Of a stretch of 64,000 nucleotides of DNA, positions 1,160 through 43,693 are shown piece after piece. Origin of the DNA: Chrysomallon squamiferum (taxonomy: Eukaryota > Animalia > Mollusca); NCBI GenBank assembly GCA_012295275.1, contig CM022672.1, positions 16,306,001-16,370,000 on the forward strand, given 5' to 3'. The notes under the pieces were generated by a model. The model had not been told where the DNA came from and did no database searches. It saw only the letters and a list, made by a program, of their open reading frames with translations. The translations under genes and the position numbers were made by a program. Within the stretch, counting starts at the first letter, position 1. Every line of letters begins with the position of its first letter.

Positions 1160-1244
1160 TCAGACAGATGTTTCATTTGTGATTCCTTTTCTAGCCAGCT
1201 GTTCTCTCACTCTTTTCAGGTAATCTGGATCAGGATACCCATTT
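1160..1244 (-). CDS. DTX3L-like: Terminal exon, Deltex C-terminal (DTC) domain end
   Basis: After a ttttag acceptor it translates to NGYPDPDYLKRVREQLARKGITNETSV*, matching the Deltex/DTX3L C-terminal GYPDPxYLxRVxxEL.AKGI motif. Confidence 0.93.
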
Positions 1245-4200
1245 CTAAAATAAAAATAGCATAAAAACAATTACAGGAATTAATAAATATTTCATTCACA
1301 GAAATTCTACCCAATCAGCAACAGAGGAAAACAGTCTGACATTCAGACAAAATCCTGAAGGATAAACGTTTTTGACCCATGAAGAAAATACAAACTGTTG
1401 ATTGGGGTCCCTGTCTTAGTTTTGGATGAAGTTAAAGATTCATAGCAATAAATTTTCTGATATCATTTTGACATTATAAAATTACTCCATCATATCTAGA
1501 ACTAGGTGCTATACTTAAAAGTATATACTTTTTCTCATTAAAAAGAGATAAATAAAATAATTTTATTTTCATATAAAGAAATTTATTTCAGATGTTACGT
1601 ATGATAATTATATGAACAAATAAAAGAATGAAAAAAAAACTACACTTACTTTTCTGGACCTCCCCATGTATTTGTTTTATGTTCAATGTCACTCCATTTT
1701 ATAACGTTATCTGCCCCAATGATGAAAGTAAGTCCTCTGTCAAAAGCAATCTTCAACAATTTGTAGACTGTCCGACCTTCCTCATTATTTGGCAAATAAG
1801 CTTTCTTTCTTGTAGAATAATATTCCTTCCCTGGATTGGGATGTCCTTCCTGGAAATGGAAACACCAATTCGGTTAGTATAAAATCATTATTTAATTTAA
1901 TAATATGACTAAATTAAAAAATCTACTGTAAATTATAATAATGAACCACATTAATTAATAAGGTTAATATAGTATGAAAAAAAGTAGAGAAAAAAACACA
2001 ACAGAAAAAAGAAAGAATGTTTCTTGAAATTAATCTAATTTTGTTATGATTACATTAAGAAACAGCAAAACAAAAGTAACATGGAAGAAAGTAAAGAAAA
2101 CTAGGTCTGAATAATAAATAATTAAGAACTTACAGAACTGCATGAAAATGTTACTTTATCTTCTCATCTAATGTTAGTATAAGTAAAGATTGTTATATGC
2201 TTTATTAAATGAAATTTAACTAACAGTATACTACAGTCTGAGAAAATGGAATAAATTCATGTTGTTCTTGAATATCATTTTAAAAATTAGATTACTAGTA
2301 TCATTTGAAAGAAAAAGAAAAAAGTACACTTATATAAACCAGTTTTTGCTATATACACTGACGTTAATGAAATTTACTTGCTGGCAGCTATATAGTTACC
2401 TCTTCTGGTGCATTTATAGAAACTTAAACATATTAAAGTATTAGAATTAATAAATAAATATTGAATAAAAATATATTTTACTCATTATATGATTTATTTT
2501 AGTATACATAATTTTGTAACTATTTTGTGATGTACTGATTCTCAGCAGTAATCTTTTACATTTATCAAACAAATAAATTCTTTGGCATTTGATTGTGATA
2601 AATGCTTAGCTAATTCACATCTAAATAAATAACTGGCATGAAATATTTTGAACTGCACATTTTGCAGATCAGATAGGAGTAAATGATAGTTTTTAAAAAA
2701 GTAATTAAATAAATAAATAAAAAGTCTAAAAGTAGCCACAAATTTCTAATAGTTTTCTGACAAAACATATATATACATACTTGGATATGTATTATTATTT
2801 TCTGTACTCTTCCTCACTTAATAAATACTTTAGCTTTAATTCTGAAATTGAATTGATGTAAATATTTTCTGCAGATTACTAAATAATCATAATGTTTAGT
2901 GCTCTGATTAATGAAAATTAAACTATAGTGAATTGTATATAGGATATTTAAATCTTACCGACTGTGTGCCACCAGTAAGTGAATAATTAATGACTATTGT
3001 TCCATCATGAGGATATCCTTCCAGATGGAATCCATCAAAACTGAAGGACATTTGTCCCTTTGCCATATTTCCACAAACTGGTTTGTTTACTGAGGAACAA
3101 ACTGGACAGACAGATGAAAATTTATTTTTGCAGGTTTGACATAACAGATGTTTGCATTTCTGAAACACTGCAAGGGAAGAATCTTGTTGCTTGCAGGATG
3201 AACAGACATTTTTGTTTTCTCTGGATTCTGGTTTAGATAAGGCATTCGAAAAATGTAATTTTTTAAACTGTTCATAATTATCTTGCATTGTCTTAACATG
3301 AATTTGATTTTTATCAACAATTTGAACTTGTTTGAGAAATAGATTTGATTCTTTAGCAGCAAATTCCTCAACTGCTTCAAAGATCATTTTGGAGTAATCC
3401 TTTAGACAGACATCTGCAAAAAAACAACAAAAAAACATTAAAAAATATAACAAATAAAATAAATAAATAAATAGACCCCACACACATAAATATATAATAA
3501 TAATAAGAAGAAGAAAAAGCAGAAATAAAGAAAATGAAAGAAATAAATATCAGAAATGTATTTTATATTGAGCAAAAAATGATTCAAAGATATGTAGGAT
3601 ATGTTAAATTTATTGTCAATACAGTAATTCTTGCTAATATTTTTATTAATAAGAACACTTTAAATTATTAATCTATCATTGTGCTTTAACCAAGATAATA
3701 TAGATTGACCATTGTTTGCTTGCATAGATGCATTTCTCTATAACAAAGATGTAGGTAAATTTGGTTGAGACGATGTTTAAAATACTTCCTTAAACATATT
3801 CTTTTAATTAGAGGTTTATGTATTTGATAGATAAAAACAAATAACATTTTCTAGCCATTACAGCCAATTTAACTATCTAATGCACTAACTGACCAATATA
3901 CCTTTTGAGTCATCAACACAGGAAAAGCAACAGATGAAAGTTCTTGAGAGTTGGCAAAAGCAAAGATTTTACTAATAATCTCTTTAAGGTTAGAAATTTC
4001 TTTCAGATCAGATTTTAAGGATACCAAAGCATGTATGACCATTTTCTGAAGTTTTCCTTCTGTGGTTTGGAAAATATGTCCAATGGAGAACTGATTAACT
4101 GAATAAGCCTTCAAAGCTTTTCTGTATTCTTCTCCAGCAGCTTCAGAGATATCGTTGGGCACACTATGTTTTTCTGATAGATCTCTATCATGCCAGCAGA

Positions 4201-7200
4201 CTATGGCCTGAACATTTGAATGTAAAATGTTATCACAATATATTAATATGTCAGGTACTTTGTCACTTGTAGTTGTCACTTCTGAAGTATTATTTGACTT
4301 TTTTAATGTTTCATTAAATCTGACATTAGGTCTGTTTTTGGTGCTAACAGTTGAAATGTCAGATTTAGAGCTGAGCTGTTTCGTATTCTGCTGGATAACA
4401 GATTCATTACCAGCCTTTTCCTTTGATGCAGCTGATAGACTGGCAGAAGCAGAACTCTCATTTGCATCTTTTGTGTTAGCTGAAAACTGCCTTTTAGATC
4501 GTTTTGTAGGCTTAATTTTGTTAAGATAAAGATATGCTTTGGTTTTTGCCTTGTCTGTTGTGTCTCTATTATCACCAATTATCACCAGTTTGTCACAGCA
4601 GTATTTGCAAAAGACATCGCTGAATTCTTCCCCAAGTTTATTTTCAGCTTCTTTTGCTTTTTCTGATTCTGAAGATGAAATATCAATTTCAAATCTTATC
4701 ATACCTTCTATCTGATGATAAAGCTGCTTTGATTCATCAGGATTAGAAGAAATCTGAAAAGATAATTTCACTTTGTCGTTTACACATTCTGTGATACAAC
4801 ACTTTTCAAGCAGATGGTTTTTAATAATTTTCTTAACAGCCTCATAGTGACAAGAGTCAATAACAATTTCTTGAAACTGGTTAGGAATCATTTTTGAAGG
4901 AGAATGCTGTTGTGGTTGTTTCGGTCTTGCACCTTCTCCCATCTGATTAGATAGTCTATGTGAAAAATGAGCTACATCATACTGAGAATTTTGAAAACTA
5001 TTTATTATTTTGTAGACATCAATTAGGTGTGTAAAGGTTTTTGCTTTCACTGAAAAAGTTGGTGGGTTTGACTTTTCACATTTCATGACTTTTACACCAT
5101 CCAAAGTTTGGAGTTTCTCCAATAAATGATCATGTCCTTGACATCTAAGAATTGTTGGATTTATGTCTGCCATATGGTTGAAACTCTGAAGTACAGAAAT
5201 ACTTACTTTAAAAAAATTTAAAACACATATTTGTCTACTTATGTGGCTTCTAAAATATATATATAATTTTAAGAAAGAGAAATTAATATTTAAGTTCAAA
5301 CAAAATGATATATTGATTGGTATGTAGTAAGAATTGGAATTCTTAGAATTTGTTTTATGCTTCATGAATTTAATGTGTAAATAAAGATACATGATTTTTG
5401 TGTGAGGTTTTAATGGTGTATTCACACATACAAAAAATAAAATTACAAATGAAGTAAAAAATTAATTATAATGTCATGCTCTACACAGATATTAATAGAA
5501 AATAAATTAATTAACTGAGTATAATTTGATTTTCATTTCTGATCAAATCTACACTGTCTTTCAAATGATATCAAAATTTGGCCATCTGAAAATCACACAA
5601 ATTTTGGTATGTAGTAAACATTATGAAAATTAATTTATACCATTAAATAACAAACCTCAGTTTCTTCTGTATCTTGTGATTCTCTATCATCTGTAAATCA
5701 TTTTTGTAACAATTAAAATTTCAAATATAGCTGAACAAGAAAAATAAATAAAAGATTGAAATCGTCTTTATAAAATGAAAAGTTTGCATTATACTTAAAC
5801 ATATGTATTATTATTTATTTTAGTATTACAAAGTCTGAATATAAATTTAAAAGCTAAACAAACATTTTCAAGGGAGATAACTCTCAACATTTTAAAATCA
5901 ATTTACCAGCTCTTTCAGCATCTACAACCATGTTTTCTTGATTCTGGTAAAATATGTAAGAAATAGAATTATTAATAGTGCATCAATAAAATAAAAATAT
6001 TACACATATTGGTGACAACTTATGTAGAACATCAAAGTTTTAAATTTTTATTGTATCATAGGATCTCAAATACTAAAATTAATTTTGTCACCTATCAGAC
6101 AGATCAATAATTACTCATTTACAGTAAAATAAGAAAAGAAGAAACAAATAGAAAAAATGTGCAAAAACAAACCCCCTAAATAAAAAAGCAATAATATATT
6201 TTTACATTTAACCACAGTTGCAATACTATTTTTCTTAACTTTCAGTTAGATCAGAATTCATTACTAAAACCAAAATGTAAATATATCAAAAATATTCACT
6301 AAAAGGGATAACATTTTACCTTTTCAAATTGTGAAATTAAATTTTGTTTCGTTTTTTCATTTTTCTCAGATGAATTTGATGTAATCTTCAAAATTCCTAC
6401 ATTTTCTTCATCATGATCAGTGTCTTGGCTTGATAGAAGTCCTGAAAATATTTTAAACAAGGGTAAATGGAAATTCATTATAAAATAAATAATAATTGTA
6501 ATTATTGCATAACTGAGTTTAAAGAAAAAATATATTTGAAATATTAATTTATTTCTGAATGTAAATCATTTGTTAGGAAAATGAATTATTTGTGATATCA
6601 ATCTCAAACTAAAACTTACCAGTATAGGTCAGAACTTTTGAAAATAGTGATTGGCTGTTTCCATGCAGTATTTTTGCAAAGTTCTCATAGTCCTTTTTAT
6701 TGTGTACTGGTAGTGTGATGAGACATATATTCTTCTTAATCTCACTATCATTCAGACATTCCACCAAAGCCCTACATACCACTTCAGCATTCCTTGCTAA
6801 CAGGCCTGAAAATTGTTTGATCTTTTCATTAAATACAAATTCCACAAAATTAATAATTAAAAAAAAAGACAAAACAATTTCAACATATATAATCTTTCTA
6901 TTAATTTCAGTTAATTGAGAAAGAAAGTAAATTTTTCTCTTAATTTTTCTATCCTATTCCATTTTATTTGGTCAGAATATCTTTTAACTTTACAAAAGAA
7001 TGTCTGCAATTCTTAAGAGAACACTGCAATAAATGTAGAGAACACAACCATAGAAGCAACGGTAATTAATAAACTCAGTGCTTAATTAAAGTCCTTTTCA
7101 CTAAATAAATTAAGTTTTGAAATAGAATAATTTTAATATAGTTTTTTCAGTCAAAGATATATCAATTTACCATGTGCAGTAATAGGCATTTGCAATGTCT

Positions 7201-8072
7201 GTAAATACTGAGATGCTGCAATCTTCAAACTATTATTTATGGCTTCTTTTAGATTATTAGCAATATTCTGTTTTATCAAACAGTGAATCAACATCCTTGA
7301 AGCTGGCAAAGAGTGTGCTCTAGTTTTTACAAATCCATCAGTTTTAAGAGCTGAAACTTTAATAAAGAAGGATTAATTAATTATTTACCTAGTAACAGAG
7401 AAAGTAAGATATATATAGTGGTACCTTGACTTACAAGTTTATTTCATTCCATGACAGATTGTGTAACTCAATTTGTCATATATCAAATCAGTTTTCCCAA
7501 ATGAAATTAATTGAAATACCATTAATCCCTTCCAGTCCCACCCAAAAACCACCCCAATTTTTTGTAACTTGTTTTTGAATATGAAAAATGTATTTATAAA
7601 TGGCAAAAACTGTATAAAAACAAAACAAAACAGAAAGTAAAGAAATAAACTGGTTTTGTGAAGTATATTTATCTCGGAGATCATACAACCTGGCCTAACT
7701 GAAAATGCAAATTAAAAAAAAAAATTTGGCAAAATATTGCATAAAATGCAAGCACAACACAACAAAGATGCTTCCACAGTGAGGTAACCACATGAAGTAA
7801 ATGAGTGAAATGCAGGATACTAGCAGCGGCATATCTGAAGTTTGCTCGTAACTCAAACTTTGGCTTGTTATGAGCAGTTGTCTTGCAACTATATATATAT
7901 ACATACATACATACTGTGGTACCTTGACTTAAGAGTGCACCAACTCCAATTTTTTGTTTAGAGTTGCAAGCCAACTGCTCATAACTCAGAGAACTTGTAA
8001 GCTGGTGCACTCCTAAGTCAACGTACCACAGCATGTATGTATGTATATATATATAGTTGCATACATACATAC

Positions 8073-8145
<73 letters not shown>

Positions 8146-11100
8146 TTTACAGTATTACTGTTTATATCAATACCATTATTTTGTCTAAATAATATTTCAG
8201 TTAAGTGTAACAATTAATGCACCAAAAAAACTGATGTTCCATTTAATTTCATGTCTAGTGGTTAAAACCAGCATTAATTTCATTTATGTATTTACTTCCA
8301 TGGTCATGTTTAATGTTTTCAGAGCTTGGAATCATGATCATATCAAGTACATAAAAGTGACTATTTCTCGATATCATTTGATTTTTACCAGAACTGTTCT
8401 ACACTAAAAAGGTTAACTAACAACTAATGCACAACTTGTTTCAAAGAAAACACTAATTGATAAATATAAAAAAAAAAATCATTTCAGTTATAGAAAGAAG
8501 CACATATAATGAAATTTCATTTACTATTTAAAATAGGTAATCTCATTAGGAAGGATAGGGGCAGAAGTCCTGAGGATGAATCTTTTGTATTAATCCCTCA
8601 TAACATTAAATTAATTCACTAGTCAACAAATATTTTGAGAAGTTTGAATGAATGAAAATAATATTTCTGATTTGGCATGCTTAGTTTGAGACTGAATTCA
8701 TACAATGAAATTTCATGTAATCCCATTAGGAACAATAAGGGCACAAGTAATGGAAGAACTTTTTTTCTAATATTACCTTATAACATTAAATCAATTTACT
8801 AGACAGCAAATATTTTTTCGTTTGGTTATAAATGAAGATTTTGGTAGCTGAATTATTTTCTAATAAATAAAACATATTGGTATTTTAAAGTTTTCTACTT
8901 ACTGGATTCACTCAGTTTTATTGCTTTAATATCTTCATGTCTCATTAATGGATGTTCAGTTGTTTCTGGAAATTTGAAAGTTACAAACACTTAGATACAA
9001 TCAGATATTTGCTATATGCTGAATCGTTCACAATACACATGAGAAGATAAAAGCAATTTTTCTATCCTTTCAGAAAATCCTCTTTAAAAACATTTTTCTA
9101 ATTAAAAATTATTTTACTTTTAAACAACTTATTATTTTATTTATATGAATTATTTTTTTGTGACTAAAAAATAATATTATATTAATTATTAATGTGCTAG
9201 CCAACTCATTAAGAAAAAAAAAAGGATAATTAAAACAAGATAAAGGTGTAAGTATTGAGACGTTTTACCTGAATTCATTTACATTTCTGCAGTATTTAAA
9301 ATATAAAGTTTAATGAACTTCACCTGATAAATCCTCGCTTTCCCAGAAACAAAGAATAGCTTCAGATTTTCCTGCACATTGAGAGATATTTCCTAGAATG
9401 AGCTGAATATCAATACCATTGAAAGTGAAGATTCTTCCTGAAATGTTTAATTAAACATATAGAGTATCCAAATAGATAAAACACTGAGTAATGTAAAGAT
9501 TTTCTTTTTGATAAACCTTTAATTTGTGTTTGTATTAAAAAAAAAATCATTAAAACATTAGTAGAAATCTTCAAGTCAAATAAAAAGGGACTTTTGATTC
9601 GTCCTTAGATAGACCTTACAAATGTCCCATTACTTATACTCACAGGATCAAATATCTAGAACATAAATATGACCTGAAACCCTGTCAACAACTGAGTTTA
9701 GATACTGTATCACATGACTTTTGAAATAAATTAATAAAAATTAAAACATTTATATGTAAATAAAACAAGATCAACAATGATGTCCAGTGTTTGTAAACAT
9801 ATAATTTCATAAACATCTCATTTTCTTTCAGTAACATCAATAATAAATTTAATTCAGACTGAGTCTTCAATATAGATAACATAAATATTTCATAGCTTCA
9901 TCCATAAAACAATATATAGCCTATATTTAAACATAACTGCTGAATATTTAGAAAACACATTACTTAATAATGAATATAAAATGAAATTTCTAAGACAGTT
10001 TGGTTATTATAAATCCTATATCATGTAATGCACACACTATCAAGCATGGGTCAAGCTGACTGTCAGACAAAGACATCCTACACAAGAGACTGCTCTGATT
10101 AGCACACTGAATTTTCATTCATTCACTTATTAATGTTTAATAAAACAAAACAAACAAAATCTAAATTTATAATGCTGCTAATAATTCAGGAACTAACTGA
10201 AATTAAAAATTGTTACCTTTTTCTGCCCCATAACTTTTCTGCATGTACTTTGAGAGAAATATCTGAAACAGAAGATATTTAAATGTTTGCTAAACAATAC
10301 CATTTTCTGTTTGTAGTATGTATCCATACAAATTTGATTTAGTAATCCATTGTTTTTCTAAAATATGTTAGTAATTACTTAATTACCTTTTTGAATTTTG
10401 CCTTAGCAAATCATCTTTTTTATTTCTTTTTCAATGCTATTTTTTTCAGAAAATAATTATTGTTATGATTTGTTTTGTTTTGTTTTCTTTCTTTTTTTTT
10501 TTAGTTTTTTTTTTTTTTCTGGGAAACTGAAATCAAATATCAAAGTAAAAAGTGTAAAAATCTTGAAAACTTATATTTTCATTTTGATATATTGAAAGGA
10601 ATATTGCAGTACCAGAAAACCTTGACTGGAAATGAAATAATAATAATAACTGTCAAAGGCTAAGACATACCTTTTTAATTGTATTGTTAGAAGGACCATC
10701 ATATATAACAATGCCCACTTTCTCAATGGTGGAATCTTTCTTTTCTGTGAAATGTTTTTCCACAGCATTCAACATAGTTGTAACAACAATCTCTGGAGGA
10801 TAGTTTAAGTTTCCAGTACCAAGAGTAGGAAATGCAATTGTCTTGTAATGACATTTTTCACACAATGTCAGACATTCCAGAATGAAGTTAGTCATTAGGT
10901 GTGTCTATAGAAAATAAAGGCAACAGATAAATAAGGATGTTTTATTAATAAATTAATGCATCAGATCAGTTCCATTATGTTAATTATCATGTATGATATT
11001 TGATAATAAAGACAGAGTCATATTAAGATGTATCAAAATATGGATAAAAGAGTTGCATGCTTACTCATCACCACAAATGTTTCAGTTTATTTTTAAAGAT

Positions 11101-12201
11101 ATATTCTAGATGCTGTTTTATTCCATTATTTCAACATCATCATGTCTTAAGATGTATAACCACAAATTACAGTAATTCTGATTAATTTTAATGTTACAAG
11201 CAGCATGAAAAGTTTATTGTGCTATTGGGAATGTATATAATTTAGAGGCATGTATGACAGATAATCTAGAACAAACAATTAGATGCTGTTTGAAGGAACT
11301 CCCTCAGCAGAGTTATTAAATTATTTTTGTCATCAATCTTTAGTTGATGTTTGTATGTATATGTATTCATTTATCTCAATTTGCAGCATATTGTATGTTA
11401 TAATTGTTGGTACTGTATTGTCATTCTCACAGTCTGGTAGGTAAATCAAGTAACTTTGCCACCAGAGAGAATTACACAGTAACATGGAAGTACAGATAGA
11501 CTGGTCATATTAGAAGGGATTTAGCCTACTTTATTTTTAACTATAAATATTTTAAACCTCGATTTCAGATTTAAATAGTGTGAAAAGTCTTGGTTTACAT
11601 TAAAATGCACTGAATGAAGAATCTTAACATTGACAAAAATACTGTCACTAGACATTTGAATGTTTGAAGTGAACATTTAAAATGATTTATAAAGAAACAA
11701 AGATAAACAAATAAAGATAACTTTACAATATATATATTTTTTTGAATTCCTGAAATGCAAGAATTATAATGTGATGTTATTATTTTGTGACAAAATGTTA
11801 ATTACCTTTTTATCATACACTGGCAGAGCTCCATGAAATATTGCCTTAACTCCTGATAATCTTCCAGGTCCTGTGATTGCTACTTTCCCTTCTTCAATCC
11901 CCAAATAATAGTATTTTATACATTCTGTTTGAATCTGATCTCCTGCTGATTCAAGTAATGATTTTGAAATCATCCCTTTATTAAGATCTAAATCTGTGTT
12001 TGTGGAATTCACCAGAACATCCACCTAAAAAGAAACATATATTTTTCTACATTTATGAAAAAAGATTCCATTAAAGAATTAGATTTCATCTAATATTACA
12101 GATATTAATCCATAAAATAATAATAATAATAATAACAATAACAATAAACTGAAAAAAAAACTAATAACAAAACAATAACTAACTAACTAAAACTAACAAA
12201 A

Positions 12202-12237
<36 letters not shown>

Positions 12238-15200
12238 ATGAACAATGGAAATTTAACAATTTGCTTCAGTACCATACTTTATGCATGCACTGATATTAAA
12301 GGGCTGGTCCAAATAAAGACATATTTATTTGTTTTCCAAAAATATGTATTTACATGTAACTGGAATGGGAAATTACTTTAAAATCCATTTTTGAATTATA
12401 TTTCAATATAGATTTTTTAATGTTACTGGGATAAAAAGCAGGATAAATTTATGTGTGAAGTTCTATGTGACTGACCTGTGATTGAATGTTGAGAACTCAT
12501 GACATCACTATTATTTTCAATAACATCAGTACTGTTTTAAAGAAATTTTTGGACTAAATGATATAAGAGACAATACGAGAAAATACACAGTCAGTTATTA
12601 ATTAGTTATTCTCTGGGTTTCTAGGGACACATGGTTGTGATAATGAAAATGTAAAATAAATTATAGAGGAAAATATCATTTTTGGTAATGTCAAAATTAT
12701 TGTGAAACTGCCATCTTTATCCATCTTGGAAAAATGTAAGAATGAAATATTATTTCAATAGTAATTAGATATATTATATTTTCAGCATATCATTTGGATA
12801 GCCATTTTAAATATTAGCTGTTTATTGTAGAGAAATTCAGTTCATGTTTTGTACTCCTCTTTTCTATCACAAACATGGTTGAGAATTATCACTGATTTAA
12901 AAGTAAATCTAATTCTGAATAATATAAATGAACAAATGTATGACATTATAAATGACAGACTGAGGAGGTAGAGTTTAGAAAATAAAGAAGCTGATGTCAT
13001 AAGAAAAAGTGTAACTATTCTAAGGTTAAATTAAAACAGTATTTTTATTTTGTACCTTTTGCTTTGCAAGTTCTCCAAAATGAATGTCAATCTTTGAAAT
13101 ATATGATGTTACAGCATCTATTGAAGAAAATAAAAATCTTTAAGGAATTATTTTTTAATTAAGATTATTTAAAGTGACATGAATGAAGCAATAATGTTTA
13201 CAGTCATCTTGAAATCAAAATAATATGTACAGAAAGTACACTAATATCATTTGATTTTCTGAATATATGTACAGTTTATACACTGAAAGGAAGATTTACT
13301 AAAATAAAAAGACTTACCCTTTTCTTCTGATTTCCTTTTTCTAAGGAATTTATTCTTTGATAAAAATCAGAAAAGATTTTTTGGCAATACAAATGTGTCA
13401 TTTATCATATTTGTCAGTTTTAAAGCTTTCTCTCTTTTTTGTGTGACCAAAAAAATTTTGGTGATGGTAAAAATTCAGACATCTTGAAATCAAAATAATA
13501 TCTGTAATAAATTTACTTTTAATGTAAAGAAATAATATGTACAGAAAGTACTCTAATTTCATTTGATTTTCTGGATATATGTTCAGTTTATACACAGAAA
13601 GGCAGATTTATTGAAATAAAAAGACTTACCCTTTTCTTCTGATTTCTTTTTTCTAAGGAATTTATTCTTTGATAAAAATGAACTACTTTTTTCTTGCAAT
13701 ACAAATGTGTCATTTATCATATTTGTCAGTTGTAAAGCTTTCTCTCTTCTTTGTGTAACCAGGAAAAATTTGGTGATAGAAACAGCTTTGTTGTGGCTGG
13801 AGACAAAATCCCTAATTCCCATCATAATGAGTTCTGCCAGATGGCTCTCCAAAATATCTTCATATGACATATCAAACAACACAACTGTAACCTTTTTATT
13901 TTTATTCAGCTGTGTCAAAAGTTCTGTTATACTTTCTTTGCCATTATCTATGGATTTCTTTGAAGAAAAAACATTGTGAAAAACTATATTGTTTGAATAA
14001 TGTAAAACTTTTCCCCTTTGTTTTAGACTTTTCTTGAATTGCTGAGAAAGATCATCTGAAAAATAGAATATACAAATATATATTAATCAGATAATGTTTT
14101 TATATTTTCACATTTACTTTATTTATTAAATTTTAACCACAATTGCCTCTTTTTTATTACTGCTGTATTACCAATCATAATCAATCACACACACACACAC
14201 ACACACATATAAACCAAACAAACTAAAAAACAAAAAACATTTATTAAAGTATTAGTATTTAAAATGTCATAGTAACATTGTCATATGAATTATTTCTGGT
14301 GATTTTTTAAACTTTTATATCAATGCAAATCAAAGGGATAAAATAAACAAACAAATTTATTAAGTTGTAATTAATCTAATAATTATTTTATTTTATTTCT
14401 AGAATAATATTTGAAATTTACCTTTTGATGTTACTGCAGGGCTTGGAATTTGCTGTGTGAACTCATACATCACTGGAAAAACACAAACACTGCAATTTCC
14501 TGAATCAAAAAGTTCCTTAATTGAAATAATGTCCCCACTCATTACTGACAGAGTCACTGGATCATCTTTTTTCACTGAGTTCATTGTCCAACAGTCTACC
14601 TCATCTGGTTGCCATCCATCTACAACTGTTATCATGCAGTTATTAGTTTTTTCTTCATCACATATTATTTTCATGCCATTATTTGTGCTGTAGAAGTTGA
14701 ATGAATCTTCATCTAATGGTAGATCATCAGTATACAGCTGTTTTGACATATTTTTTATAGCTTCCACAGTTGAGTGTACCGCATCCATGTTTTGTCCTTT
14801 TACAACTAACATTTGTTTATTATGTGTTGAAGCATTTATTTTAGTTTTATACTTTATCTGAATGGCTTGCATTTCTTCAGAGCTGAATTTGTTTAAATAG
14901 TCAATTTTCTCTAGTGATAATAGTACAGACCCTTCACAATCACCATTCTCATTTTGTGAAAATGAGCTGTTTTCTGGTGATGAGACTGTTATTTCAGCCT
15001 TCAGTTTCTCAATTTTGTCATATACTTCAGCTGCATATGCTTTTAAACCAACAATCTCATATCCAGTATCTTCACCACCAGTAATTTTTTAACAAGTAGA
15101 GTTTCACTGTCATACTGTCTTGACAGTTTCTCTTCAATTTTATCCAAAATGCTTTTTCAATCACAATCTTCTTTTCCTCAAAATTTGTAAAATAATTTGT

Positions 15201-18200
15201 TAATTTGTTTCAAAATTTTAGGCAGAGATTTAACACTTGCAACAAACAGTAATTCATTTTCGGATTTATTTGGAATAACCAAAAGTTTTTCTTTTTCAAA
15301 TTTATCTTGAATATTTGTTGCTGTTTTTTCAAGCCCAAGAAGTTTTGTTACAGGCTGTGAGGACATTTTCTCGTGGTGTTCCAAAATGACTTCTTCAACC
15401 ACTTTCTCTGCTTGTTTTACTTTGTCACCTTCAACATGCAAGACATTTTCTTCTTTAAAATCAAATGCATGAATGATATTTAGCTTCATTAATTTTTTAC
15501 TTACAAGGTTTTGTGCCTCACTACTACCTTTTAAGAAGTCAAATCTTGATGATGAAATTTTCACAGTTATAACCAGTTTTTCTAATCTTTTGCACACCTC
15601 TGCACATATGTCTTTCTTCCCAAAAATTATAAATTCAACTTCTGATTCACAACTAGAAACTGGATCAATTGTTACAGAGTTTTCATCAAACTCCTTTGCA
15701 ATCTGCCAAATTTCATGTAAAAGCCTTTCATTTTGATGTATTAAGTCTCTGCTAAAGAAAACAGATTTTTCTTCCAAACAGTCACATTTTTGTCTTATGA
15801 ATTCCAATGCCTCAGAAACTGCATCATTTAGTCCAACAAACAATAATGTGTTTTCTGAATTATCTGGTGTAACTGACAACTGATTTCCATACTTTTTTTC
15901 AAGTTGTCCTGCTATCTGGTCAAGTTCATACAGTCTCCTAATTGAGTAGGAACTCATATCCTCCCTTTGTTCAATGATTATATCATTTACAGTTGTTTTT
16001 GCTTGGTCTGCCTTTGAGGCTTCAATGTGTAAAATAACTTCAGGATCAATCTCAAAAATGTGCCCAATGCTCTGATCATTTAGAGATTTCTTAACAAACT
16101 CCTGGGCTGTAACACTGGTCTTTAAAAATGCTAGTTTTGTGTGTGAAATTAATAATGTGACGAACATGTTTTCCAATTTCTCGTAAACATTTTTACAGAT
16201 TACTTTTAAACCAATAATTAAAATTTCCACTCTTTTTTCAGAGGCAGCAAGTTGTTCAACTGAGAGATTTTCATGCTCATATTTAGCAGATATTTGGTGA
16301 ATTTCCTGAAGAATTTTAGCAGTACTGCATAAAGTCACCTTTCTTTCTTCATAATTGTTTATCATTTTATGGATCTTTTCTAATACAGATGTCATTACAT
16401 TTCTGGTTCCAACAACTAATAAATCTTCATTATTACAAGAAACCAGTACCTTTTCATGTCGAACTGTGTTTTGAATTTTCTCAACTGCTTTCTCAATTCC
16501 AAGGAGTTTTGTCATAGGCTGTGTACGTATATTCTCACAGTGTTCAAAGATGATTTCATCAAGTAAAATCTTTGCTTTCTGCACTTCTCTGTCTTCATTG
16601 TGCAGGATAACTCCTCTCTCAAAATCAAACCAGTATTGGATTTGGTTCTCTTTGAATTTTTCATCTATTATATTAGTAAACTCCTGACAATATTTCAGTT
16701 TTAAAGGAGAAAGTGGAATGGTGATAAATAAATTCTCCATTTTGTGGCAAACAGTAGCACATATGTCTCTAATCCCAATAATAACAAACCCAGTTTTTGG
16801 CTCATTGGTAAATGGTTTGATAATTAAAGCATCATCACGATACGTCGCAGATATTTCCTGAAATTCCTCAGAATTCTTGACTTGCTGATATATGCCTGGA
16901 CTGAATTCAATTTTCTTTTCTTCATATGAATTCAGATATTTATTAATTTTGTTCATAACATTTGGCATGACATCATGTGTTCCAATAAACTGTAATGAGT
17001 TTTTGTCATCTTTTGGAATAACTAATAGCTTCCCTTCTCCAAATTTTTCTTCAATCCATTCAGCTATTTTTGACAGGCCAAGAACTTTTTTTATGGGTTT
17101 TTCAGATATGTTGTCTTCATGTTGTTTAATTATTTCATCTAGCATCTGCTCTGGTTCTTCTGCACTCTTGCATTCTGTAAATATTATAATTCCTTTTTCT
17201 GGTTCAAACTGACATTTTGTTTGCTTACTTTCAAGTGTTTTCAAAATGTAATTCAGTGCAGTGTCCTTGGATTTTAAAAATCTGACTTTCAGAGTTGAAA
17301 GTTTCACCACTTTACTTTCCTGCTTTGGTTCGCATTCCAGGTCATCAACATTTAATTGGCTTTTAGTTTTTTCTATTTCGGCCTTGGGTCCTAAAATTAT
17401 TATCCTTAGAAGATCAGAATCTGTTTTCAGAAGAATTCTTACTTGCTGTGGTAAATCTGATCTTAGCTGGTCTAATTTCTGTTTCAAGAATTCCATTTTG
17501 GTTCTGGGTCCCAACTCAATTTGGTGAGTGTATTTGCAAATTTCTTTTATTGTAGTTAAACTGTCATCAAAAATGTCTGATGTTCCACAAATATGTAATC
17601 TATCTGCAGTTGGAAAAGAAATCAGGAACTTTCCTTTGTATTTTTCAAGTTTGTACACATCATTCAGAATATCAGTCAGAACATCTCTCAGTTCATTTAC
17701 ATCAAGAAGATGAATCAGTTTATTTTCCAACAGCAAAGTGTCACTTCTGAATAAACTGTCAAACAAAGATTTCATTTTTGAGTGACTTTTGACTTCAGTG
17801 GTACTTTTAATCAATTTATTTTCAAAATCAAATTCAATGCTGCTAGATAAATTTTCTCTGACATAATCTTTAGCATGCTCACTTTGTTTCAATAACTGGC
17901 ATACTGAATCAGGTATAAATTCTACAAATCTAAGCTTATCCAGAGAATGAAAAAAGTTGTCAATTTTCTCCTCATTATTGAGAATATCACATCTTGGTCC
18001 TATCAGATAAAAAACATATTCATCATTTTCTTTCTCCATAGATACTCTACAGGATTCTGTTTGATCATGCAAGTTGCCTATCATTTCATATATTTCTGTG
18101 TGAAAAGAGTCCTCTTGGAATTTATCCATCACAAGTGTTTTTTGAAAACAACAAACATCTGTTATTTCATTCAGCATTTCCATTGCCTTTGGCATTATGT

Positions 18201-20469
18201 CATCTGTTCCACACAACAGTAGTTTTTTGGAATCAAGAAAACATTCTATTAACAGCTTCTCAGGAAATTTGAATTCCAGTTTACTTTTAATCTCATTCAG
18301 TGTTAATATTTGATTGGTTAGATACTGTTTCAAACATTTACACTCTTCACATATTAATTTTTCAAACTTTTTAAATCCTTGCTCCAAATTTTCAAAGGTA
18401 TTTGATGTCAAGGTCACACTGTTTTCTCCATTTTGGAGGTGGAATTCTGTATGGATGTTCTCAAGTTCATGCTTTATGTACTGTTGTGCTTTTTCTCTTT
18501 TTCTCAAAAGCTTTACTTTTATTGCTGATAACAAATATGTTTGTGAATAGGTTTGCTGGTCTAGCCACTGTTTTACTTTTGTCTTTATGTTTCTCACTTT
18601 ATTTCTGTTTCCAATGATTTTTAAAGTAAATGTTTCACCATCAGTTATTTCTTCAAAATATACTTTTTGCTGAAGATCAGAATCTCGCATGTTGTAAACT
18701 TCATTCCAATGTCCAGATATTTTTAAATATTCTTGTTCCTTCATGGGTACAACAAGCTCATCTTCTGTTATATCATCAGTTATTGTTTTTATTTCACTTT
18801 CTACTGCAGCATGAACAGAATCTGTGCATAATACAATAACATCATGTGATGTTTCTTCTTTGGACACCATAAACATATCACATTCTGAACAAAGCCTCTC
18901 TCTCAATAACTGGTCAAGTTCTTGGATTGAAAACACATCTCTGTGTAATCCAGGTTCCAGTTTAAATGTCACAATCAGCTCTGAAAGTTTGTTCTTCAAT
19001 TTGTCAATTTCATGCTCATCTACATGAACAAAACTTAGACAGCCACCTTCAACATCTATCCTCACAGTCTTCGACTAATGATTGAAGCTGCTGGGTAACA
19101 TAATGTAAGGCCTTCTCACATTTCTTCAGAAATAAAATTTGTTTTTTCTCAATCTTAATTATTGTGACAGGAAGGTTTTTGTTTAGACTAATGTTTGATC
19201 CTGATTCTGTTACACCTCTTTGACCTGTTTTACACAAATTTGATTTATGATCAGTTAGAAGTTGCAGTGTTTTGTTTGCTTCATCACAAACTGTATCAAT
19301 ATCATTTTCTTTTGCCACTACCATAATGGTTTGGGGACCTTTAACTGCTATTGCTTTGCTATAATCAACTGAATGTTCGAATTTAGTGACAAAAGTCTCA
19401 AAAGATATCAGTGAAAGATTATACTGAATGGTCCTGCATGCTACTTTCTTAAAAATTCTATCAAATATATCACTGATAGCAAGCAGTGAAGGTTGGTCAT
19501 CAGTATTGTTACTTTGTTTGAAGTCAATTTCAATTAGGTTATCTGAAGCTGACACATGATGAATAGTACAGTCTAGCTTTTCAAGTTCCTCTTTAATGAA
19601 ATCCATGAATTCTGCAGACTTTTGTACAAATTTCCACTGACAATTTTGCATTTTTAGATTGGTTTTTAAATGTTTTGATGAGAGTTTAACTGAAGTTTGC
19701 ACAATTGACTCATCATGTCAGAGATACCTAAATAACAAATTAATGATTATTTAAACCCTGAAATGTAAGATGCTAAATTTTGTACATTGTATGTTATTAA
19801 TATATGAATATATGAGAATTGGGAAGTGAAACAAAATTCTTCTAAAACTTTATTATAAACTACTTGTTCAAGTTCTGTTTTCAAGTACAGAGGACAAAAG
19901 CACTACTATGGTGGTAATATACTGTATTTTATATATTTATTTAAATGTCCTTGATTTTGTTTATTTTATTTTTTTCTAAGCACAGTAAAAGTTTTTTTCT
20001 CTCTTTCATCCAAATCTTGGATTTTATTTTGTGGGAAATAATTTATTTCACCTTTCTTATAACTGTCAGTTTCTTGACTAACATCTGATGACAGTGTTTC
20101 TTTTTTTTCTTTCTCATGGTGTAAACTTGGACTCTCTGATTTGCAATCCAGATAGCTTCCTGTAAATTATATTCACAGTTCTTACCATAATCAAAATACT
20201 AGTTCCAAAATTCTACTTTTATTTAAGTACAGGGTGCTAATTACAACATTATAAACATTTCCTCACTTTACATCGCAACACTTACCACTGTCTTCTAGCA
20301 CTAACTGTTGAGAGAGATGTAATATTTAAATTAAAACATAGAATTATTTTCACCATAATATTCTACAATAATTCATTTCAGCTGAAAACAATTTTGTTAT
20401 TTCTTTATTTTTTATTTATTTATAAATTTTAATTATTTATTATTTTATTTATTTTATCTTATTTTATTA

Positions 20470-20507
<38 letters not shown>

Positions 20508-20582
20508 GTTTTTATGAATAAGATATTATTCAAAAGATAATATAATACCAGGCCCATCAACTCCATCTGAATGGGCTGCCAT
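1160..20582 (-). CDS. DTX3L-like: Copy A: multi-exon KH-repeat + 4x macrodomain + RING-DTC protein (PARP14/PARP9-like N-terminus joined to a DTX3L/Deltex-like E3 ligase C-terminus), ~3070 aa if indels are corrected
   Basis: Hand-built GT-AG model: 20549-20582 (ATG in AAAGATGGC), 20286-20300, 20052-20159, 14422-19727, 13630-14055, 13056-13117, 11806-12024, 10671-10904, 10217-10262, 9324-9437, 8903-8965, 7171-7350, 6620-6805, 6320-6441, 5907-5943, 5656-5690, 3902-5185, 2959-3413, 1650-1849, 1160-1244 (TGA). Junction phases match except 3902/3413. Five apparent 1-nt indels lie in the giant exon, so it may be a pseudogene or carry assembly errors. Confidence 0.75.
1650..1849 (-). CDS. DTX3L-like: DTC domain exon
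   Basis: EGHPNPGKEYYSTRKKAYLPNNEEGRTVYKLLKIAFDRGLTFIIGADNVIKWSDIEHKTNTWGGPE; contains the Deltex HPNPG, AYLPxNxEG and HKT motifs; ccag/gtaag boundaries. Confidence 0.93.
2959..3413 (-). CDS. DTX3L-like: Exon: end of macrodomain D, C3HC4 RING finger, start of DTC
   Basis: CSSC-x12-CKH-x2-CQTC-x7-CPVC followed by GNMAKGQM...LEGYPHDGTIVINYSLTGGTQ, the Deltex GxQPxGxM / LPGY / GTIxIxY pattern. Confidence 0.9.
3902..5185 (-). CDS. Exon: KH-like units, low-complexity linker, degenerate macrodomain D
   Basis: Part of the 518-aa ORF. The macro-like segment reads ILIYCDNILHSNVQAIVC...ISEAAG...TTEGKL...VIHA...SSVAFPVL. The cttcag acceptor is phase 0. Confidence 0.8.
5656..6441 (-). CDS. Three short linker exons (6320-6441, 5907-5943, 5656-5690) joining the macrodomain region to the DTX-like region
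   Basis: All have AG/GT ends with phases 1-0, 0-1, 1-0 and no stops. Copy B conserves them, with three synonymous-only changes in the 35-nt exon and an in-frame 12-nt insertion in the 37-nt exon. Confidence 0.75.
6620..9437 (-). CDS. Degenerate macrodomain C (exons 9324-9437, 8903-8965, 7171-7350, 6620-6805)
   Basis: IDIQLILGNISQCAGKSEAILCF...FVKTRAHSLPASRMLIHC...LQTLQMPITAHG... follows the macro-fold order; all exons are phase 1-1 and conserved in copy B. Confidence 0.65.
7914..8031. mobile_element. 118-bp MITE with Tigger/pogo-like TIRs (also in copy B at ~38944-39061)
   Basis: CTGTGGTACCTTGACTTAAGAGTGCACCA matches the reverse complement of the right end at 27/29. A related end, (C/T)AGTGGTACCTTGACTTAC, starts a longer element at ~7416. 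Confidence 0.7.
8077..8140. repeat. (GA)n microsatellite
   Basis: Direct reading; similar tracts at ~20729-20795, ~22648-22708 and ~39111-39156. Confidence 0.95.
10671..13117 (-). CDS. Canonical macrodomain B, PARP14/PARP9 macro-type (exons 13056-13117, 11806-12024, 10671-10904)
   Basis: IDIHFGELAKQK|VDVLVNSTNTDLDLNKGMISKSLLESAG...VAITGPGRL...IFHG|...TIAFPTLGTGNLNYPPEIV carries the hallmark macro-PARP motifs. Confidence 0.9.
13200..13780. repeat. Local ~300-bp tandem duplication including a degenerate copy of the 3' end and donor of exon 13630-14055
   Basis: gacttacccttttcttctgattt...tttgtcagt occurs at both ~13311 and ~13623, and catcttgaaatcaaaataata at both ~13205 and ~13480. Confidence 0.8.
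13630..14610 (-). CDS. Highly degenerate macrodomain-like unit A (end of giant exon plus exon 13630-14055)
   Basis: VTLSVMSGDIISI...VCVFPV; later LAELIMMGIRDFVSSH...ITKFFLV resembles the macro C-terminal helix and strand. Confidence 0.5.
14422..19727 (-). CDS. Giant (~5.3 kb) exon of tandem KH-like repeats of the PARP14/PARP9/DTX3L type
   Basis: Made of ORFs 19049-19702, 15178-19065 (1295 aa) and 14399-14872, joined by apparent 1-nt indels; internal ~195-aa repeat; tttag acceptor at 19728-19729 and gtaaat donor at 14420-14421. Confidence 0.8.
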
Positions 20583-22080: not shown

Positions 22081-22098
22081 GGAAATCGAAACGAAACT
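22081..22098 (-). promoter_or_regulatory. ISRE-like element in the second promoter module
   Basis: GGAAATCGAAACGAAACT followed by GGGAGTTA.TAGAAATCGCG and TGACGTAC (22126-22133), the same layout as at 21078. Confidence 0.6.
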
Positions 22099-30649: not shown

Positions 30650-33600
30650 AAAAGCAATTCATATACATATAATTAATTTTTCTACATATTGTTATCTTGT
30701 ATAATGTACAAAATACTCTGACACTGAATATGCTGGCTTTAGAATTTTTAAATGTACAGTGATCAAATATGAATAACATGAACTGCAACAAATAAGCAAA
30801 ATCAATCCAAAGATATTAGATAGTTGAGAAATATTTACAATTTAATTATATATCCAAATTTACATGCCATACATCTGAAATATAAGACTGGGAAAACTTC
30901 AAGGTATACAGAATGCTACACATAAGAAACATTATGAATAAAAATTCTTCTTATTATTATTTTTTTTTTTAAAGTGGAAAAAAAATTATATTATAATAGA
31001 ATAACACTTTTGGATTTTAAAAGGAAAAATTAACTCTGAAAGCAATGTATATAAACTAAAATACATATTTAATACAAAAATGTCTGAATAAACCTTTTAT
31101 TTATTTCACTAGTTTCTAAACCATTAAATTTCAATAAATTAAAATGAACAAAAAATGAACAAACTTTAGCCTGGCATACTATATGACCAATTCTAATAAT
31201 AAAACAAAGTGAAAATGAAGATTTTTGCTTTAAACATATATTTTATTATTCACTGACAGTGTGTTTTTATACAATATTGATGATTATTTACATAATACAT
31301 TATAATACAAATACCTCACTGGTTTGTATTTAAAGTTAGTATGGTGATGTTCTATGCTCTGTAAAATATTAACTGTTTGTCTGTCTCACAGATTTTATTT
31401 ACATTTTAGTGAGCTTCTGTTAGGTTCTGTTATGTCCAATATCCCATTTCTTTATGTCAAATGTTTTACAAGAAAATTTGTTTCTTTCATGTACTATCTA
31501 TTATGCTCAGAGTTTTTCTTGGTTTATGTCATACATTGATTATGTTACACTTTCTTATATATAATGTTTTCATGTTTCAAACAAATATTGATAGTGTATA
31601 TCACATGTAATAGCAATTATTTGATATCAAATGTTACTCAAATACAACATAAAATATTGCAAAATCAAAACTTTACATTTCAAAAATCTAAATCAAATAT
31701 CTATACTTTTACCACTTTTTAAATTATATATTATGAATGAAGATTAAGTATATACAGTGACATCAGCATACAGTTTTATAAACAAACAATCTTTGTAATT
31801 TGTTATATATTTCTAATGAATATTCAAATACTTTTGAATAAGTGTTTTTATTTCTAAAATTTTATTTTATTGTCAGCTTAATTAATTATAATATTTACAA
31901 CCTATTAAAAAGATTAAATGTTTTTGCTAATTAAGTAACTAAATATATTTATGTTTTATAAAAAATATTTCAAGCATTTCACAATAATGTTATACCAAAT
32001 ATAGGAACTATTTCAGTAGTTAAAACAAATTTCAAAACATATATTCTATTCAGTGACATATTTATTATATAACACAATATAATATAAAATGTATGTTCAC
32101 TGAAAAGTTACAGAGAATATTTACTACACTAAAATACATAGAACTAAATATTCAATATAAGTTTATTGAAAGCATTTAATATGCTAAAACACTTAGAACA
32201 GTTTTATACATTTCACTGTTTTATGTTTCAATTAATTTTAAAACAGGCGACTGTTATTTCAGACAGATGTTTCATCTGTGATTCCTTTTCTAGCCAGCTG
32301 TTCTCTCACTCTTTTCAGGTAATCTGGATCAGGATACCCATTGCTAAAACAAAAATAGCATAAAAACAATTACAGGAATTAATAAATATTCCATATAGAA
32401 ATACTCACCCATCAGCACCAGAAGAAAACATTCTGACATTCAGACAAAATCCTGAAGGAGAAACATTTTTGACCCATGAAGAAAATACAGTAGTTCAAAC
32501 TATTGATTAGGGTCCCTGTCTTAGTTTTGAATGAAGATAAAGATTCACAGAAATAAATTTTCTGATATCATTTTGACTTTATAAAATTACTCCATCAGAT
32601 CTAGAACTATCTTCTATACTTAAAAGTATAAACTTTATTTTATTAAACAGAGATAAATGAAATAATTTTATATTCATATTACGAAATTTGTCTGATATAT
32701 ATGTATGCTAATTATGTGAACAAATAAAAGAATGAAAAAAAAAAAAAAAATTAAACTTACGATTCTGGACCTCCCCATGTATTTGTTTTATGTTCAATGT
32801 CACTCCATTTTATAAAGTTATCTGCCCCAATGATGAAAGTAAGTCCTCTGTCAAAAGCAATTTTCAACAATTTGTAGACTGTCCGACCTTCCTCATTATT
32901 TGGCAAATAAGCCGTCTTTCTTGTAGAATAATAGAGCTTCCCTGGATTGGGATGTCCTGCCTGGAAATGAAAACACCAATTCTGTTAGTATAAAATCATT
33001 ATTAAATTTAATAATATGACTAAAGATAACGTCTACTGTAAATTATAATAATGAACCACGTTAACTAATAAGATTAATATAGTATTTTAAATAACAAAAA
33101 AAATAAAAAACAGAAAAAAGAAAGAAAGTTTGTTGAAATTAATCTAATTTTGTTATGATAACATTAACAACAGCAAAAAAAAAAACAAAAAAAAAAATAT
33201 ATGGAAGAAAGTGAAAAAATTATATGATTCTGAATAATAAATAATTAAGAACTTACAGAACTGCAAACAAATGTTACTTTATCTTCTCATCTAATGTTAG
33301 TATAAATAAAGATTGTTATATGCTTTATTAAATGAAATTTAACTAACAGTATGCTACAGTCTGAGAAAACAATATAAATTTTTGCTGTTCTTGAATATCA
33401 TGGTTTTAAAAATTACATTACTAGTATCATTTGAAAGATAAAGAAAAAAGTACACTGTATATATACCAGTTTTTGCTATATACACTGATGTTAATGGAAT
33501 TTACTTGCTGGCAGCTATATAGTTACCTTTTCTGGTGCATTTATAGAAACTTAAACATATTAAAGTATTAGAATTAATAAATAAATATTGAATAAAAATA

Positions 33601-36312: not shown

Positions 36313-36355
<43 letters not shown>

Positions 36356-39088: not shown

Positions 39089-39158
<70 letters not shown>

Positions 39159-43245: not shown

Positions 43246-43276
<31 letters not shown>

Positions 43277-43693
43277 ATGAACAATGGAAATTGTAATAAT
43301 CCGCTTCAGTACCATACTTTATGCATGCACTGATATTAAAGGGCTGGTCCAAATAAAGACATATTTATGTGTTTTCCAAAAATATGTATTTACATGTAAC
43401 TGGAATGGGAAATTACTTTAAAATCCATTTTTGAATTATATTTCAATATAGATTTTTTAATGTTCCTGGGATAAAAAGCAGGATAAATTTATGTGTGAAG
43501 TTCTATGTGACTGACCTGTGATTGAATGTTGAGAACTCATGACATCACTATTATTTACAATAACATTGGTACTGTTTTAAAGAAATTTTTGGACTAAATG
43601 ATATAAGAGACAATACGAGAAAATACACAGTCAGTTATTAATTAGTTATTCTCTGGGTTTCTAGGGACACATGGATGTGATAATGAAAATGTA
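30650..43693. repeat. Segmental tandem duplicate of window 1-~12650 (offset ~30.6-31.1 kb)
   Basis: Exons and introns are colinear and nearly identical, e.g. 1-300 vs 30650-30950 and 12300-12650 vs 43340-43693; the copy ends at the N gap. Confidence 0.95.
32259..43058 (-). pseudogene. DTX3L-like: Copy B of the macrodomain-RING-DTC gene (3' half; 5' half lost in or beyond the gap), frameshifted as assembled
   Basis: Exons include 42840-43058, 41703-41936, 38172-38351, 37620-37805, 37320-37441, 36872-36920, 36602-36636, 34975-36268, 34116-34571, 32761-32960 and 32259-32343. Insertions vs copy A: +2 at ~35697, +1 at ~35141, +1 at ~34431. Confidence 0.75.

Follow-up and report, generated by a model that had tools for sequence, protein, structure and literature searches.

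A transcribed macrodomain-Deltex gene of Chrysomallon squamiferum with replaced DTC catalytic residues

A gene on the minus strand of a 64,000-nucleotide stretch of the Chrysomallon squamiferum genome (assembly GCA_012295275.1, contig CM022672.1, positions 16,306,001 to 16,370,000; hereafter the window) is spliced from macrodomain exons through a short linker into a RING-DTC module of the Deltex type. In this gene, denoted copy A, DTX3L His707, Tyr719 and Glu733 are replaced by Glu, Asn and Gln. On balance, sequence comparisons lead us to favour copy A as a disarmed paralogue of the invertebrate macrodomain-containing DTX3L proteins (macro-DTX3L), likely a non-catalytic, ADP-ribose-reading scaffold or decoy. 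Its features, in window positions, are as follows.

20549 to 20582 (minus strand): exon 1, ATG at 20582; GT donor, RNA joint 20548/20158 in four of four RNA runs
20052 to 20159 (minus): exon 2, acidic and low-complexity; joints 19725/20050 (X1, X2, X3) and 13117/20052 (X3, X4)
14422 to 19727 (minus): giant exon 3 (~1,770 aa), KH-like alpha/beta units arrayed with a repeat length of ~193 aa, from repeat scoring and PARP14 KH profile matches
15196 to 17421 (minus): four tandem ~193-aa repeats with 26-36% identity to the first row, by pairwise scoring
18657 to 18085 (minus): fifth, weaker repeat copy, by pairwise scoring
13630 to 14557 (minus): possible fourth, very degenerate macrodomain (giant exon end plus exon 14055-13630); macro profile E 2e-4 at Z=1
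10217 to 13117 (minus): macrodomain A, exons 13117-13056, 12024-11806, 10904-10671 and 10262-10217; Pfam Macro E 3e-6 and 2e-6
6620 to 9437 (minus): macrodomain B, degenerate, exons 9437-9324, 8965-8903, 7356-7171 and 6805-6620; Pfam Macro E 0.0028
6320 to 6441 (minus): linker exon 1 (122 nt), spliced in X1, X2 and X3
5907 to 5943 (minus): linker exon 2 (37 nt), joint 5943/6320 in X1 and X3
5656 to 5690 (minus): linker exon 3 (35 nt), from a 72-letter span in X1 and variant letters between 5907 and 5187 in X2 and X3
3902 to 5185 (minus): KH-like region (~4891-4486), low-complexity spacer, start of macrodomain C (from ~4252) and a frame break at the donor; P0001 alignment and Pfam Macro
2959 to 3413 (minus): end of macrodomain C, C3HC4 RING (3204-3097) and start of DTC (from 3072); domain matches and alignment
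1650 to 1849 (minus): middle DTC exon, Glu (1684-1682) at DTX3L His707; Pfam DTC E 9e-21, alignment to 3pg6 and 6y22
1160 to 1244 (minus): last exon, with Asn in place of Tyr719 (1243-1241), Gln in place of Glu733 (1201-1199) and the stop TGA at 1162-1160; alignment
32251 to 43693 (minus): copy B, a tandem duplicate that matches A from exon 12024 onwards; self-BLAST 84-91%, exon mapping

Transcript and exon structure

A preliminary description, made from the letters of the window alone, had proposed a single gene running from a macrodomain body through the linker into RING-DTC, and the transcripts bear this out. A single 4,027-nt RNA contig leads from the macrodomain exons over the three short linker exons to RING-DTC; in run X1, exons 12022-11806, 10904-10671, 7356-7170, 6804-6619, 6440-6320, 5185-3903 and 3415-2958 lie in one contig with no differences, and exactly 72 letters (37 + 35) separate 6320 from 5185. 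In runs X2 and X3, 5907 is connected with 5187 through an exon closely similar to the 35-nt one, RNA depth in the intron bins of X1 is zero, and exon 8965-8903 was recovered from loose ends of RNA contigs. As the preliminary description had it, the three linker exons (6441-6320, 5943-5907 and 5690-5656), which have AG/GT borders, lead stop-free from the macrodomain exons into pre-RING exon 5185-3902. Exon mapping and rereading of the sequences likewise reproduced its comparison of copies A and B, in which the 35-nt exon differs by three synonymous changes only, the 37-nt exon by an in-frame 12-nt indel, and the first Met of the downstream exon is shifted (NHMAD versus NHKMN). It was also right that a WWE or PARP catalytic (ART) exon is absent: none of the 2,789 six-frame ORFs (at least 15 aa) of the window was recognised as such by a profile built from 10 PARP14 C-termini, the best E of 0.037 falling below inclusion.

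It is extremely improbable that two genes are present and the RING-DTC part has its own start. One X3 contig does run on from exon 5185, at 5183, into letters that do not resemble the linker and may stem from a paralogue, and the RNA contigs, all from runs of one study, are assemblies rather than single molecules; against this, spliced joints cross every linker intron, and orthologous one-chain proteins exist in Mytilus, Pecten and Patella. Exon 2 is spliced two ways, either to the giant exon or straight to exon 13117 (X3, X4), and the predicted short form of ~1,155 aa, which skips giant exon 3, would be the same protein devoid of the KH-like array.

As assembled, copy A contains six single-base frame breaks, five in giant exon 3 (near 19673, 19059, 15194, 15152 and 15084) and one between linker and RING (near 3903). 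Several sit in A runs, RNA contigs carry an indel or a shifted joint at each of the six sites, and all six are probably assembly errors. The chain of ~3000 aa that had been proposed thus stands as one chain on the spliced RNA, and its length of ~3,064 aa holds only if the six breaks are such errors; the coding sequence of ~9.2 kb is not covered whole by any RNA contig.

Macrodomains and KH-like array

Macrodomain A is of the PARP14 MD2/MD3 reader type, with PARP14 MD2 as its best PDB match and a place in a clade with MD2/MD3 (99, quick tree). Its loop 2 reads GNL and the hydrolase signature is absent. ADP-ribose binding by macrodomain A is predicted from this clade, whose PARP14 members are described as ADPr-binding (PMC13224862). 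Macrodomain B reaches E 2e-10 at Z=1 with a macro profile built without the window domains. In correction of the preliminary description, exon 5185-3902 carries a further macrodomain (C) just N-terminal to the RING (Pfam Macro E 7.8e-9). This exon is 44% identical to residues 510-681 and 49% identical to residues 950-1318 of the Gigantopelta aegis protein P0001, skipping the P0001 macrodomain at 694-872; its low-complexity spacer occupies the place of the hydrolase-signature macrodomain of relatives. Macrodomains B and C form long branches and are unplaced in the quick macro tree. For the possible fourth macrodomain, ESM Atlas gave matches of 0.82-0.84, and the ESM Atlas matches, all of them below 0.9, serve as leads only; this domain and macrodomain B match Mytilus P0012 at corresponding positions, at z values of 1 and 3 that are not significant in segment-wise alignment. 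The hydrolase signature, taken as Asn/Ser and Gly around loop 1 and a hydrophobic plus an aromatic residue in loop 2 (criteria from PMC10221186), occurs in none of three copy A macrodomains; among the matches listed, it occurs in 30 of 55 relatives and in 14 of the 18 molluscan ones.

The giant exon contributes ~1,700 aa of repeats with putative KH identity, a candidate partner-binding region. Self-BLAST of the exon reported no repeat, and the ~193-aa period was detected by pairwise scoring instead (scores of 173-255 versus shuffled maxima of 59-81). The repeat profile matches KH regions of vertebrate PARP14 at E ~1e-5 among 239 proteins, and Pfam KH_PARP14 matches in the exon are weak and below cut-off. 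A structural model from five repeat rows (pLDDT 66) has KH domains as its top Foldseek matches, none at E<=0.001 (best E 0.013, PCBP2 KH1-KH2); in a VIA fold search its best Z was 6.6, and the match to MEX-3C KH2 (Z 6.3, rmsd 4.0, 81 aligned) was not significant. A single-sequence fold of two repeats had a pLDDT of 37, too low to use. The repeats lack a GxxG motif, and the exon had no match at E<=0.001 among 1.84 billion representatives.

The macro-DTX3L family

The preliminary description took the fusion for a trait of this lineage, with an architecture not known to it from the literature, and named a described, widespread family as one refutation of that view; an architecture search showed the layout to be widespread, and it is already described, so that this refutation holds. 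Macro and DTC domains share a chain in at least 55 distinct proteins from corals, brachiopods, molluscs, echinoderms, hemichordates and amphioxus (22 of 120 and 35 of 120 matches listed), and in none of 78 vertebrate-named rows among the matches listed in one search. A 2026 preprint (bioRxiv 10.64898/2026.04.23.720386) places the loss of the DTX3L macrodomain at the origin of PARP9. Macro plus RING-DTC is the usual invertebrate DTX3L layout and the one-chain form is ancestral, so that the claimed fusion in itself adds little. A fusion particular to this lineage is ruled out by these relatives and by the common front macrodomain: the PARP14-MD2/3-type domain also occurs in DTC proteins of Mytilus, Pecten and Patella.

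In the invertebrate macro-DTX3L proteins of Mytilus (P0012), Pecten (P0006), Patella (P0007) and Saccoglossus (P0020), one or more macrodomains likewise precede RING and DTC in one chain, and Mytilus P0012 has nearly the same macrodomain order (degenerate, MD2/3-type, degenerate, core, degenerate). Copy A, by contrast, lacks the central hydrolase-signature macrodomain, has all three DTC residues (His/Tyr/Glu) altered and shows a far more extended KH-like array (~3,064 aa in total versus 709-2,258 aa in the 55 relatives, from searches reaching ~2,300 aa, so that orthologues of full length may exist beyond that limit). An N-terminal RRM is reported for most, though not all, metazoan DTX3L orthologues in the same preprint; it had no match in the 12 copy A exon pieces scanned, a set without exons 1-2 and the smallest exons. 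In the RING-DTC tree (28 rows chosen from 162), the copy A protein is sister to P0001 (100/99), beside Haliotis proteins (89/79); a 73-row tree was run in a quick version only. P0001 (LOC121391774, 1,322 aa) shares with copy A the array start, KH region, macrodomain C, Asn719 and Gln733, but keeps a hydrolase-signature macrodomain, lacks the front macrodomains, has Pro at 707 and has a truncated RING without the last CxxC. The vertebrate PARP9-DTX3L heterodimer likewise unites KH-like domains, macrodomains and RING-DTC, but in two proteins, with an inactive ART and an active MD1 in PARP9 and an intact dyad in DTX3L. PARP14 too has a KH array followed by tandem macrodomains, and macrodomain A resembles its MD2; copy A lacks the WWE, ART, RRM and active MD1 of PARP14. 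We found no account of a dyad-less invertebrate Deltex or a molluscan multi-macro DTX3L in the literature, though Fig. 1d and the supplements of the preprint may show such proteins.

Catalytic residues, paralogues and function

The C-terminus of copy A is a tandem RING (Pfam zf-C3HC4_3, E 1.9e-6) and DTC (E 9e-21). PDB scores favour DTX3L (best match DTX3L 3pg6) and a WWE is absent, the trees being without named DTX1-4 rows; for the RING exon, a PDB search at E 0.01 gave no match. Across 162 aligned DTC domains, His is conserved in 145 and Glu in 152, and the Tyr719 position is Phe, Tyr or His in 155; all three positions are altered only in the copy A protein and P0001. The His707/Glu733 dyad, described in the literature as strictly conserved in the sets examined there, is absent from copies A and B alike. 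All eight RING zinc ligands are present; copy A has Ser at RING position 3, which we take to be an E2 contact and where 149 of 152 matched RINGs have Ile or Val.

Ubiquitylation of ssDNA is lost with H707A and reduced with Y719A and with E733A (PMC11460948). Of the proposed reader and ligase in one chain, the single chain stands on the spliced RNA; a working reader and ligase is doubtful because ADP-ribose ubiquitylation depends on DTC residues that are missing here. It is still conceivable, though rather unlikely, that ADP-ribosylated proteins are captured by macrodomain A and receive ubiquitin on their lysines from the RING, with no need for the dyad. The full set of zinc ligands and the reader type of macrodomain A suit such an enzyme, and H707 and E733 are not required for lysine ubiquitylation (PMC10810221); the Ser in the RING, the loss of RING ligands in sister P0001, the ~750 residues between macrodomain A and the RING and the degenerate macrodomain C next to it do not. 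A remodelled site, in which Glu at 707, paired with Gln at 733, serves as a general base and a different hydroxyl substrate is ubiquitylated, is highly unlikely. Babylonia P0018, placed with Batillaria at 98/97, also has Glu and Gln at these positions, but a tree uniting P0018 and the window protein passes the AU test (p-AU 0.064), so that the pair need not be convergent; moreover, P0001 has Pro rather than Glu, and the adenine-pocket aromatic is Asn.

For the favoured non-catalytic scaffold or decoy, macrodomain A would bind ADP-ribosylated targets and the KH-like array partner proteins. By analogy with the human enzymes, neither ubiquitylation of ADP-ribose or nucleic-acid 3'-OH groups nor ADP-ribose erasure would be expected. 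More speculatively, the RING might recruit E2 weakly, the KH-like units might mediate assembly with PARP14-like proteins or active DTX3L paralogues, and the protein might serve innate immunity. The catalytic loss looks old, with both frames kept open, because P0001 is the sister protein at 100/99 and is still 49% identical from macrodomain C to DTC.

Unlikely, too, is a redundant duplicate decaying in a fast-turnover family, still transcribed into a protein without a maintained role. Across 1,083 codons, dN/dS between copies A and B is 0.69, and for RING-DTC it is 0.97, values compatible both with relaxed constraint and with diversifying selection; both window copies have frame breaks, copy B, whose 5' part is lost in an assembly gap, having the same Glu/Asn/Gln and breaks of its own. 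Run X5, which covers introns, indicates many divergent copies or alleles (46 of 461 contigs at >=99%). Decay is opposed by the RNA indels at the frame breaks, several in A runs, by the frame-preserving linker indels between A and B, and by Gigantopelta, which has the same catalytic loss at about 50% protein divergence with frames open in both.

The macro-DTC family offers natural single-chain models of a macrodomain that feeds or opposes a RING-DTC ligase; a hydrolase-signature macrodomain and an intact dyad occur together in about half of the relatives among the matches listed. Copy A would be a natural loss-of-catalysis Deltex, and a dyad-less paralogue, if maintained, would test for non-catalytic roles of Deltex in invertebrate immunity. 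We tentatively suggest that some snails have a selected pseudo-Deltex, an ancient, multi-copy and fast-evolving DTX3L paralogue with neither eraser nor ADPr-ubiquitin writer, an expanded KH-like array and a short splice form, which might act as decoy or dominant regulator of an ADPr-ubiquitin immune axis.

In its two final exons, the X1 contig departs from copy A by 12 letters each, and the very last exon is unlike copy B too; further copies or alleles must therefore exist. For the middle DTC exon, the listing gives two of the 12 differences, and the types of the remaining changes are compatible with a His codon at 707, so that the expressed X1 allele may differ from copy A there. X1 does retain Gln at 733, none of the 12 listed last-exon differences touching it.

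Structure and transcripts of the gene

The gene (copy A) and its tandem duplicate (copy B) lie in a window of 28% GC that is interrupted by a 200-N gap at 43694-43893.

1160..20582, minus strand: copy A, 19 exons, from the ATG at 20582 to the stop at 1162-1160
32251..43693, minus strand: copy B, reaching up to the gap and matching the 3' part of copy A at 84-91% identity

All exon borders of copy A are AG/GT, given a donor at 3902 for exon 5185. Reading of the exon borders and mapping between A and B agree in every detail with the preliminary description of the three linker exons, and a six-frame search of the window bore out its statement that there is no WWE or PARP exon. Copy A as assembled has six frame breaks. 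Assembly error is their likely cause, because several lie in A runs and every one of them coincides with an indel or a shifted joint in RNA contigs; a broken allele is the lesser possibility. With X placed at the breaks, the protein model comprises 3,064 aa. Copy B has frame-shifting indels of its own in the two large 3' exons (34106-36282) of the genomic assembly.

Five runs cover the stretch: four RNA runs from a single study (X1-X4) and one of unknown kind that covers introns. Each RNA contig is an assembly, and no single one covers the coding sequence from end to end. A 4,027-nt X1 contig joins the exons of macro A (10217..13117) and macro B (6620..9437) to the linker, to exon 5185 and on to the RING exon. 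It has 72 letters at the place of the 37- and 35-nt exons and is identical to copy A in the seven listed pieces, but its last two exons differ from copy A. The same joints occur in divergent copies from X2 and X3, and those from the giant exon (14422..19727) to exon 14055 and from exon 14055 to exon 13117 appear in X1, X2 and X3. The proposed run of a macro-PARP body into RING-DTC thus holds as one chain in the spliced X1 contig, and two separate genes are very improbable; the scheme had missed a further macrodomain, macro C (from ~4252 into exon 2959..3413), so that the DTX3L half on its own counts as a macro-DTX3L. One X3 contig leaves exon 5185 at 5183 and goes on into sequence that does not resemble the linker, pointing to a paralogue whose upstream part is different. 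In X3 and X4, exon 2 is joined directly to exon 13117 (joint 13117/20052), skipping both the giant exon and exon 14055 without a change of frame; this ~1,155-aa form is either a short isoform or a paralogue lacking the array.

Domain anatomy and age of the architecture

The protein begins with a short acidic stretch, followed by ~1,700 aa of alpha/beta units, by what may be a degenerate macro, by macro A and by macro B, which is degenerate. After these come the linker, a KH-like region, a spacer, macro C (also degenerate), RING and DTC. The alpha/beta array holds a ~193-aa repeat in four clear copies and one weak copy, and is probably KH-like: its repeat profile matches PARP14 KH regions (E ~1e-5 among 239 proteins), and KH domains rank first, without significance, in Foldseek. 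No match to the array was found among 1.84 billion representatives, and its repeats contain no GxxG loop. A legend in PMC13224862 describes KH domains as predicted to mediate PARP9/PARP14/DTX3L contacts.

The closest match of the protein is P0001 of Gigantopelta aegis (LOC121391774). Macro + DTC proteins made up 22 of the best 120 of 258 matches in a first database search and 35 of the best 120 of 245 in a second, giving at least 55 distinct proteins, from Cnidaria, Brachiopoda, Mollusca, Echinodermata, Hemichordata and Branchiostoma. Among the best 120 of 245 matches of the second search, none of the 78 vertebrate-named proteins has a macrodomain; PARP9 is confined to jawed vertebrates according to PMC10221186. 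Invertebrate proteins of this kind are unmentioned in passages of PMC13224862, PMC12687431 and PMC8961608. Macrodomains and RING-DTC do share one chain, as first noted, but the Macro + RING-DTC fusion is already known: a 2026 preprint (bioRxiv 10.64898/2026.04.23.720386) reports the loss of the DTX3L macrodomain at the rise of PARP9. What is new in copy A is catalytic loss and array expansion.

A PARP14-like front is likewise old in molluscs, since macro A is ~39% identical to N-terminal macros of Mytilus P0012, Pecten P0006 and Patella P0007, groups with these and PARP14 MD2/MD3 (99* in a quick tree), and P0012 carries five macros whose order is close to that of copy A. The macro module is shuffled otherwise in P0002-P0004, P0008 and P0019, whose forms are a RING/B-box front with macro, RING and DTC in Haliotis, macro + YTH in Gigantopelta, and KH-WWE + macro.

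Loss of catalytic residues

Aligned to DTX3L 3pg6 and DTX2 6y22, copy A has Glu, Asn and Gln at positions 707, 719 and 733, as does copy B. The numbering was derived from the protein lengths, taking each chain to end at the protein's last residue; the positions agree with the His and Glu named in papers. The X1 transcript keeps Gln733; Glu at 707 is the reading of the two genomic copies. The His/Glu pair is kept in 45/57 macro-bearing DTC domains (those of the window counted) versus 97/105 others. Among these 162 aligned domains, all three positions are changed solely in copy A and P0001, sisters in the RING-DTC tree (100/99). That the DTC active site of copy A has been remodelled is quite improbable. 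Babylonia P0018 carries the same Glu/Gln pair as copy A at the catalytic DTC positions, and its grouping with the copy A protein was not rejected (p-AU 0.064). H707, Y719 and E733 are as defined in PMC10810221 and PMC11460948 (section 8).

The copy A RING retains all its ligands but has Ser where 149/152 have Ile or Val; P0001 has lost the last two ligands. A ligase acting on lysine only is conceivable, if unlikely. By the criteria of PMC10221186 (section 14), a hydrolase-signature macro occurs in 30/55 relatives (14/18 molluscan), P0001 included, but in none of the three macros detected in copy A. Because 30/55 carry this ADP-ribosylhydrolase signature, eraser and ADPr-ubiquitin writer may sit together on a single chain in the form usual among invertebrates. 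Between copies A and B, dN/dS is 0.69 overall and 0.97 in RING-DTC; a decaying duplicate is a reading we consider rather doubtful. A disarmed DTX3L paralogue is the most likely reading, at slightly better than even chances. Such a protein is predicted to neither erase nor ubiquitylate ADP-ribose; macro A would serve as reader and the KH-like array as assembly platform. We infer an immune role from the pathway in vertebrates, from the presence of multiple copies and from fast evolution.

Neighbouring features

55364-64000, plus strand: gene pointing away from both copies, running off the window
43924-50825: tandem array starting right behind the gap, ~11 units of ~600-620 bp at 93-98% identity
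7884-8061: imperfect inverted repeat, 78% over 181 bp, in the long intron
7409-7450: high-depth repeated stretch near that repeat
20979-21258, 21964-22266, 23006-23198: three non-coding blocks that resemble one another at 70-76%, upstream of exon 1

The outward-facing gene has at least seven RRM-like exons followed by KH-like sequence, and best matches molluscan RRM-macro-DTC proteins and PARP14; it may recall the vertebrate PARP14/DTX3L/PARP9 cluster. The inverted repeat and the high-depth stretch are probably a small mobile element.
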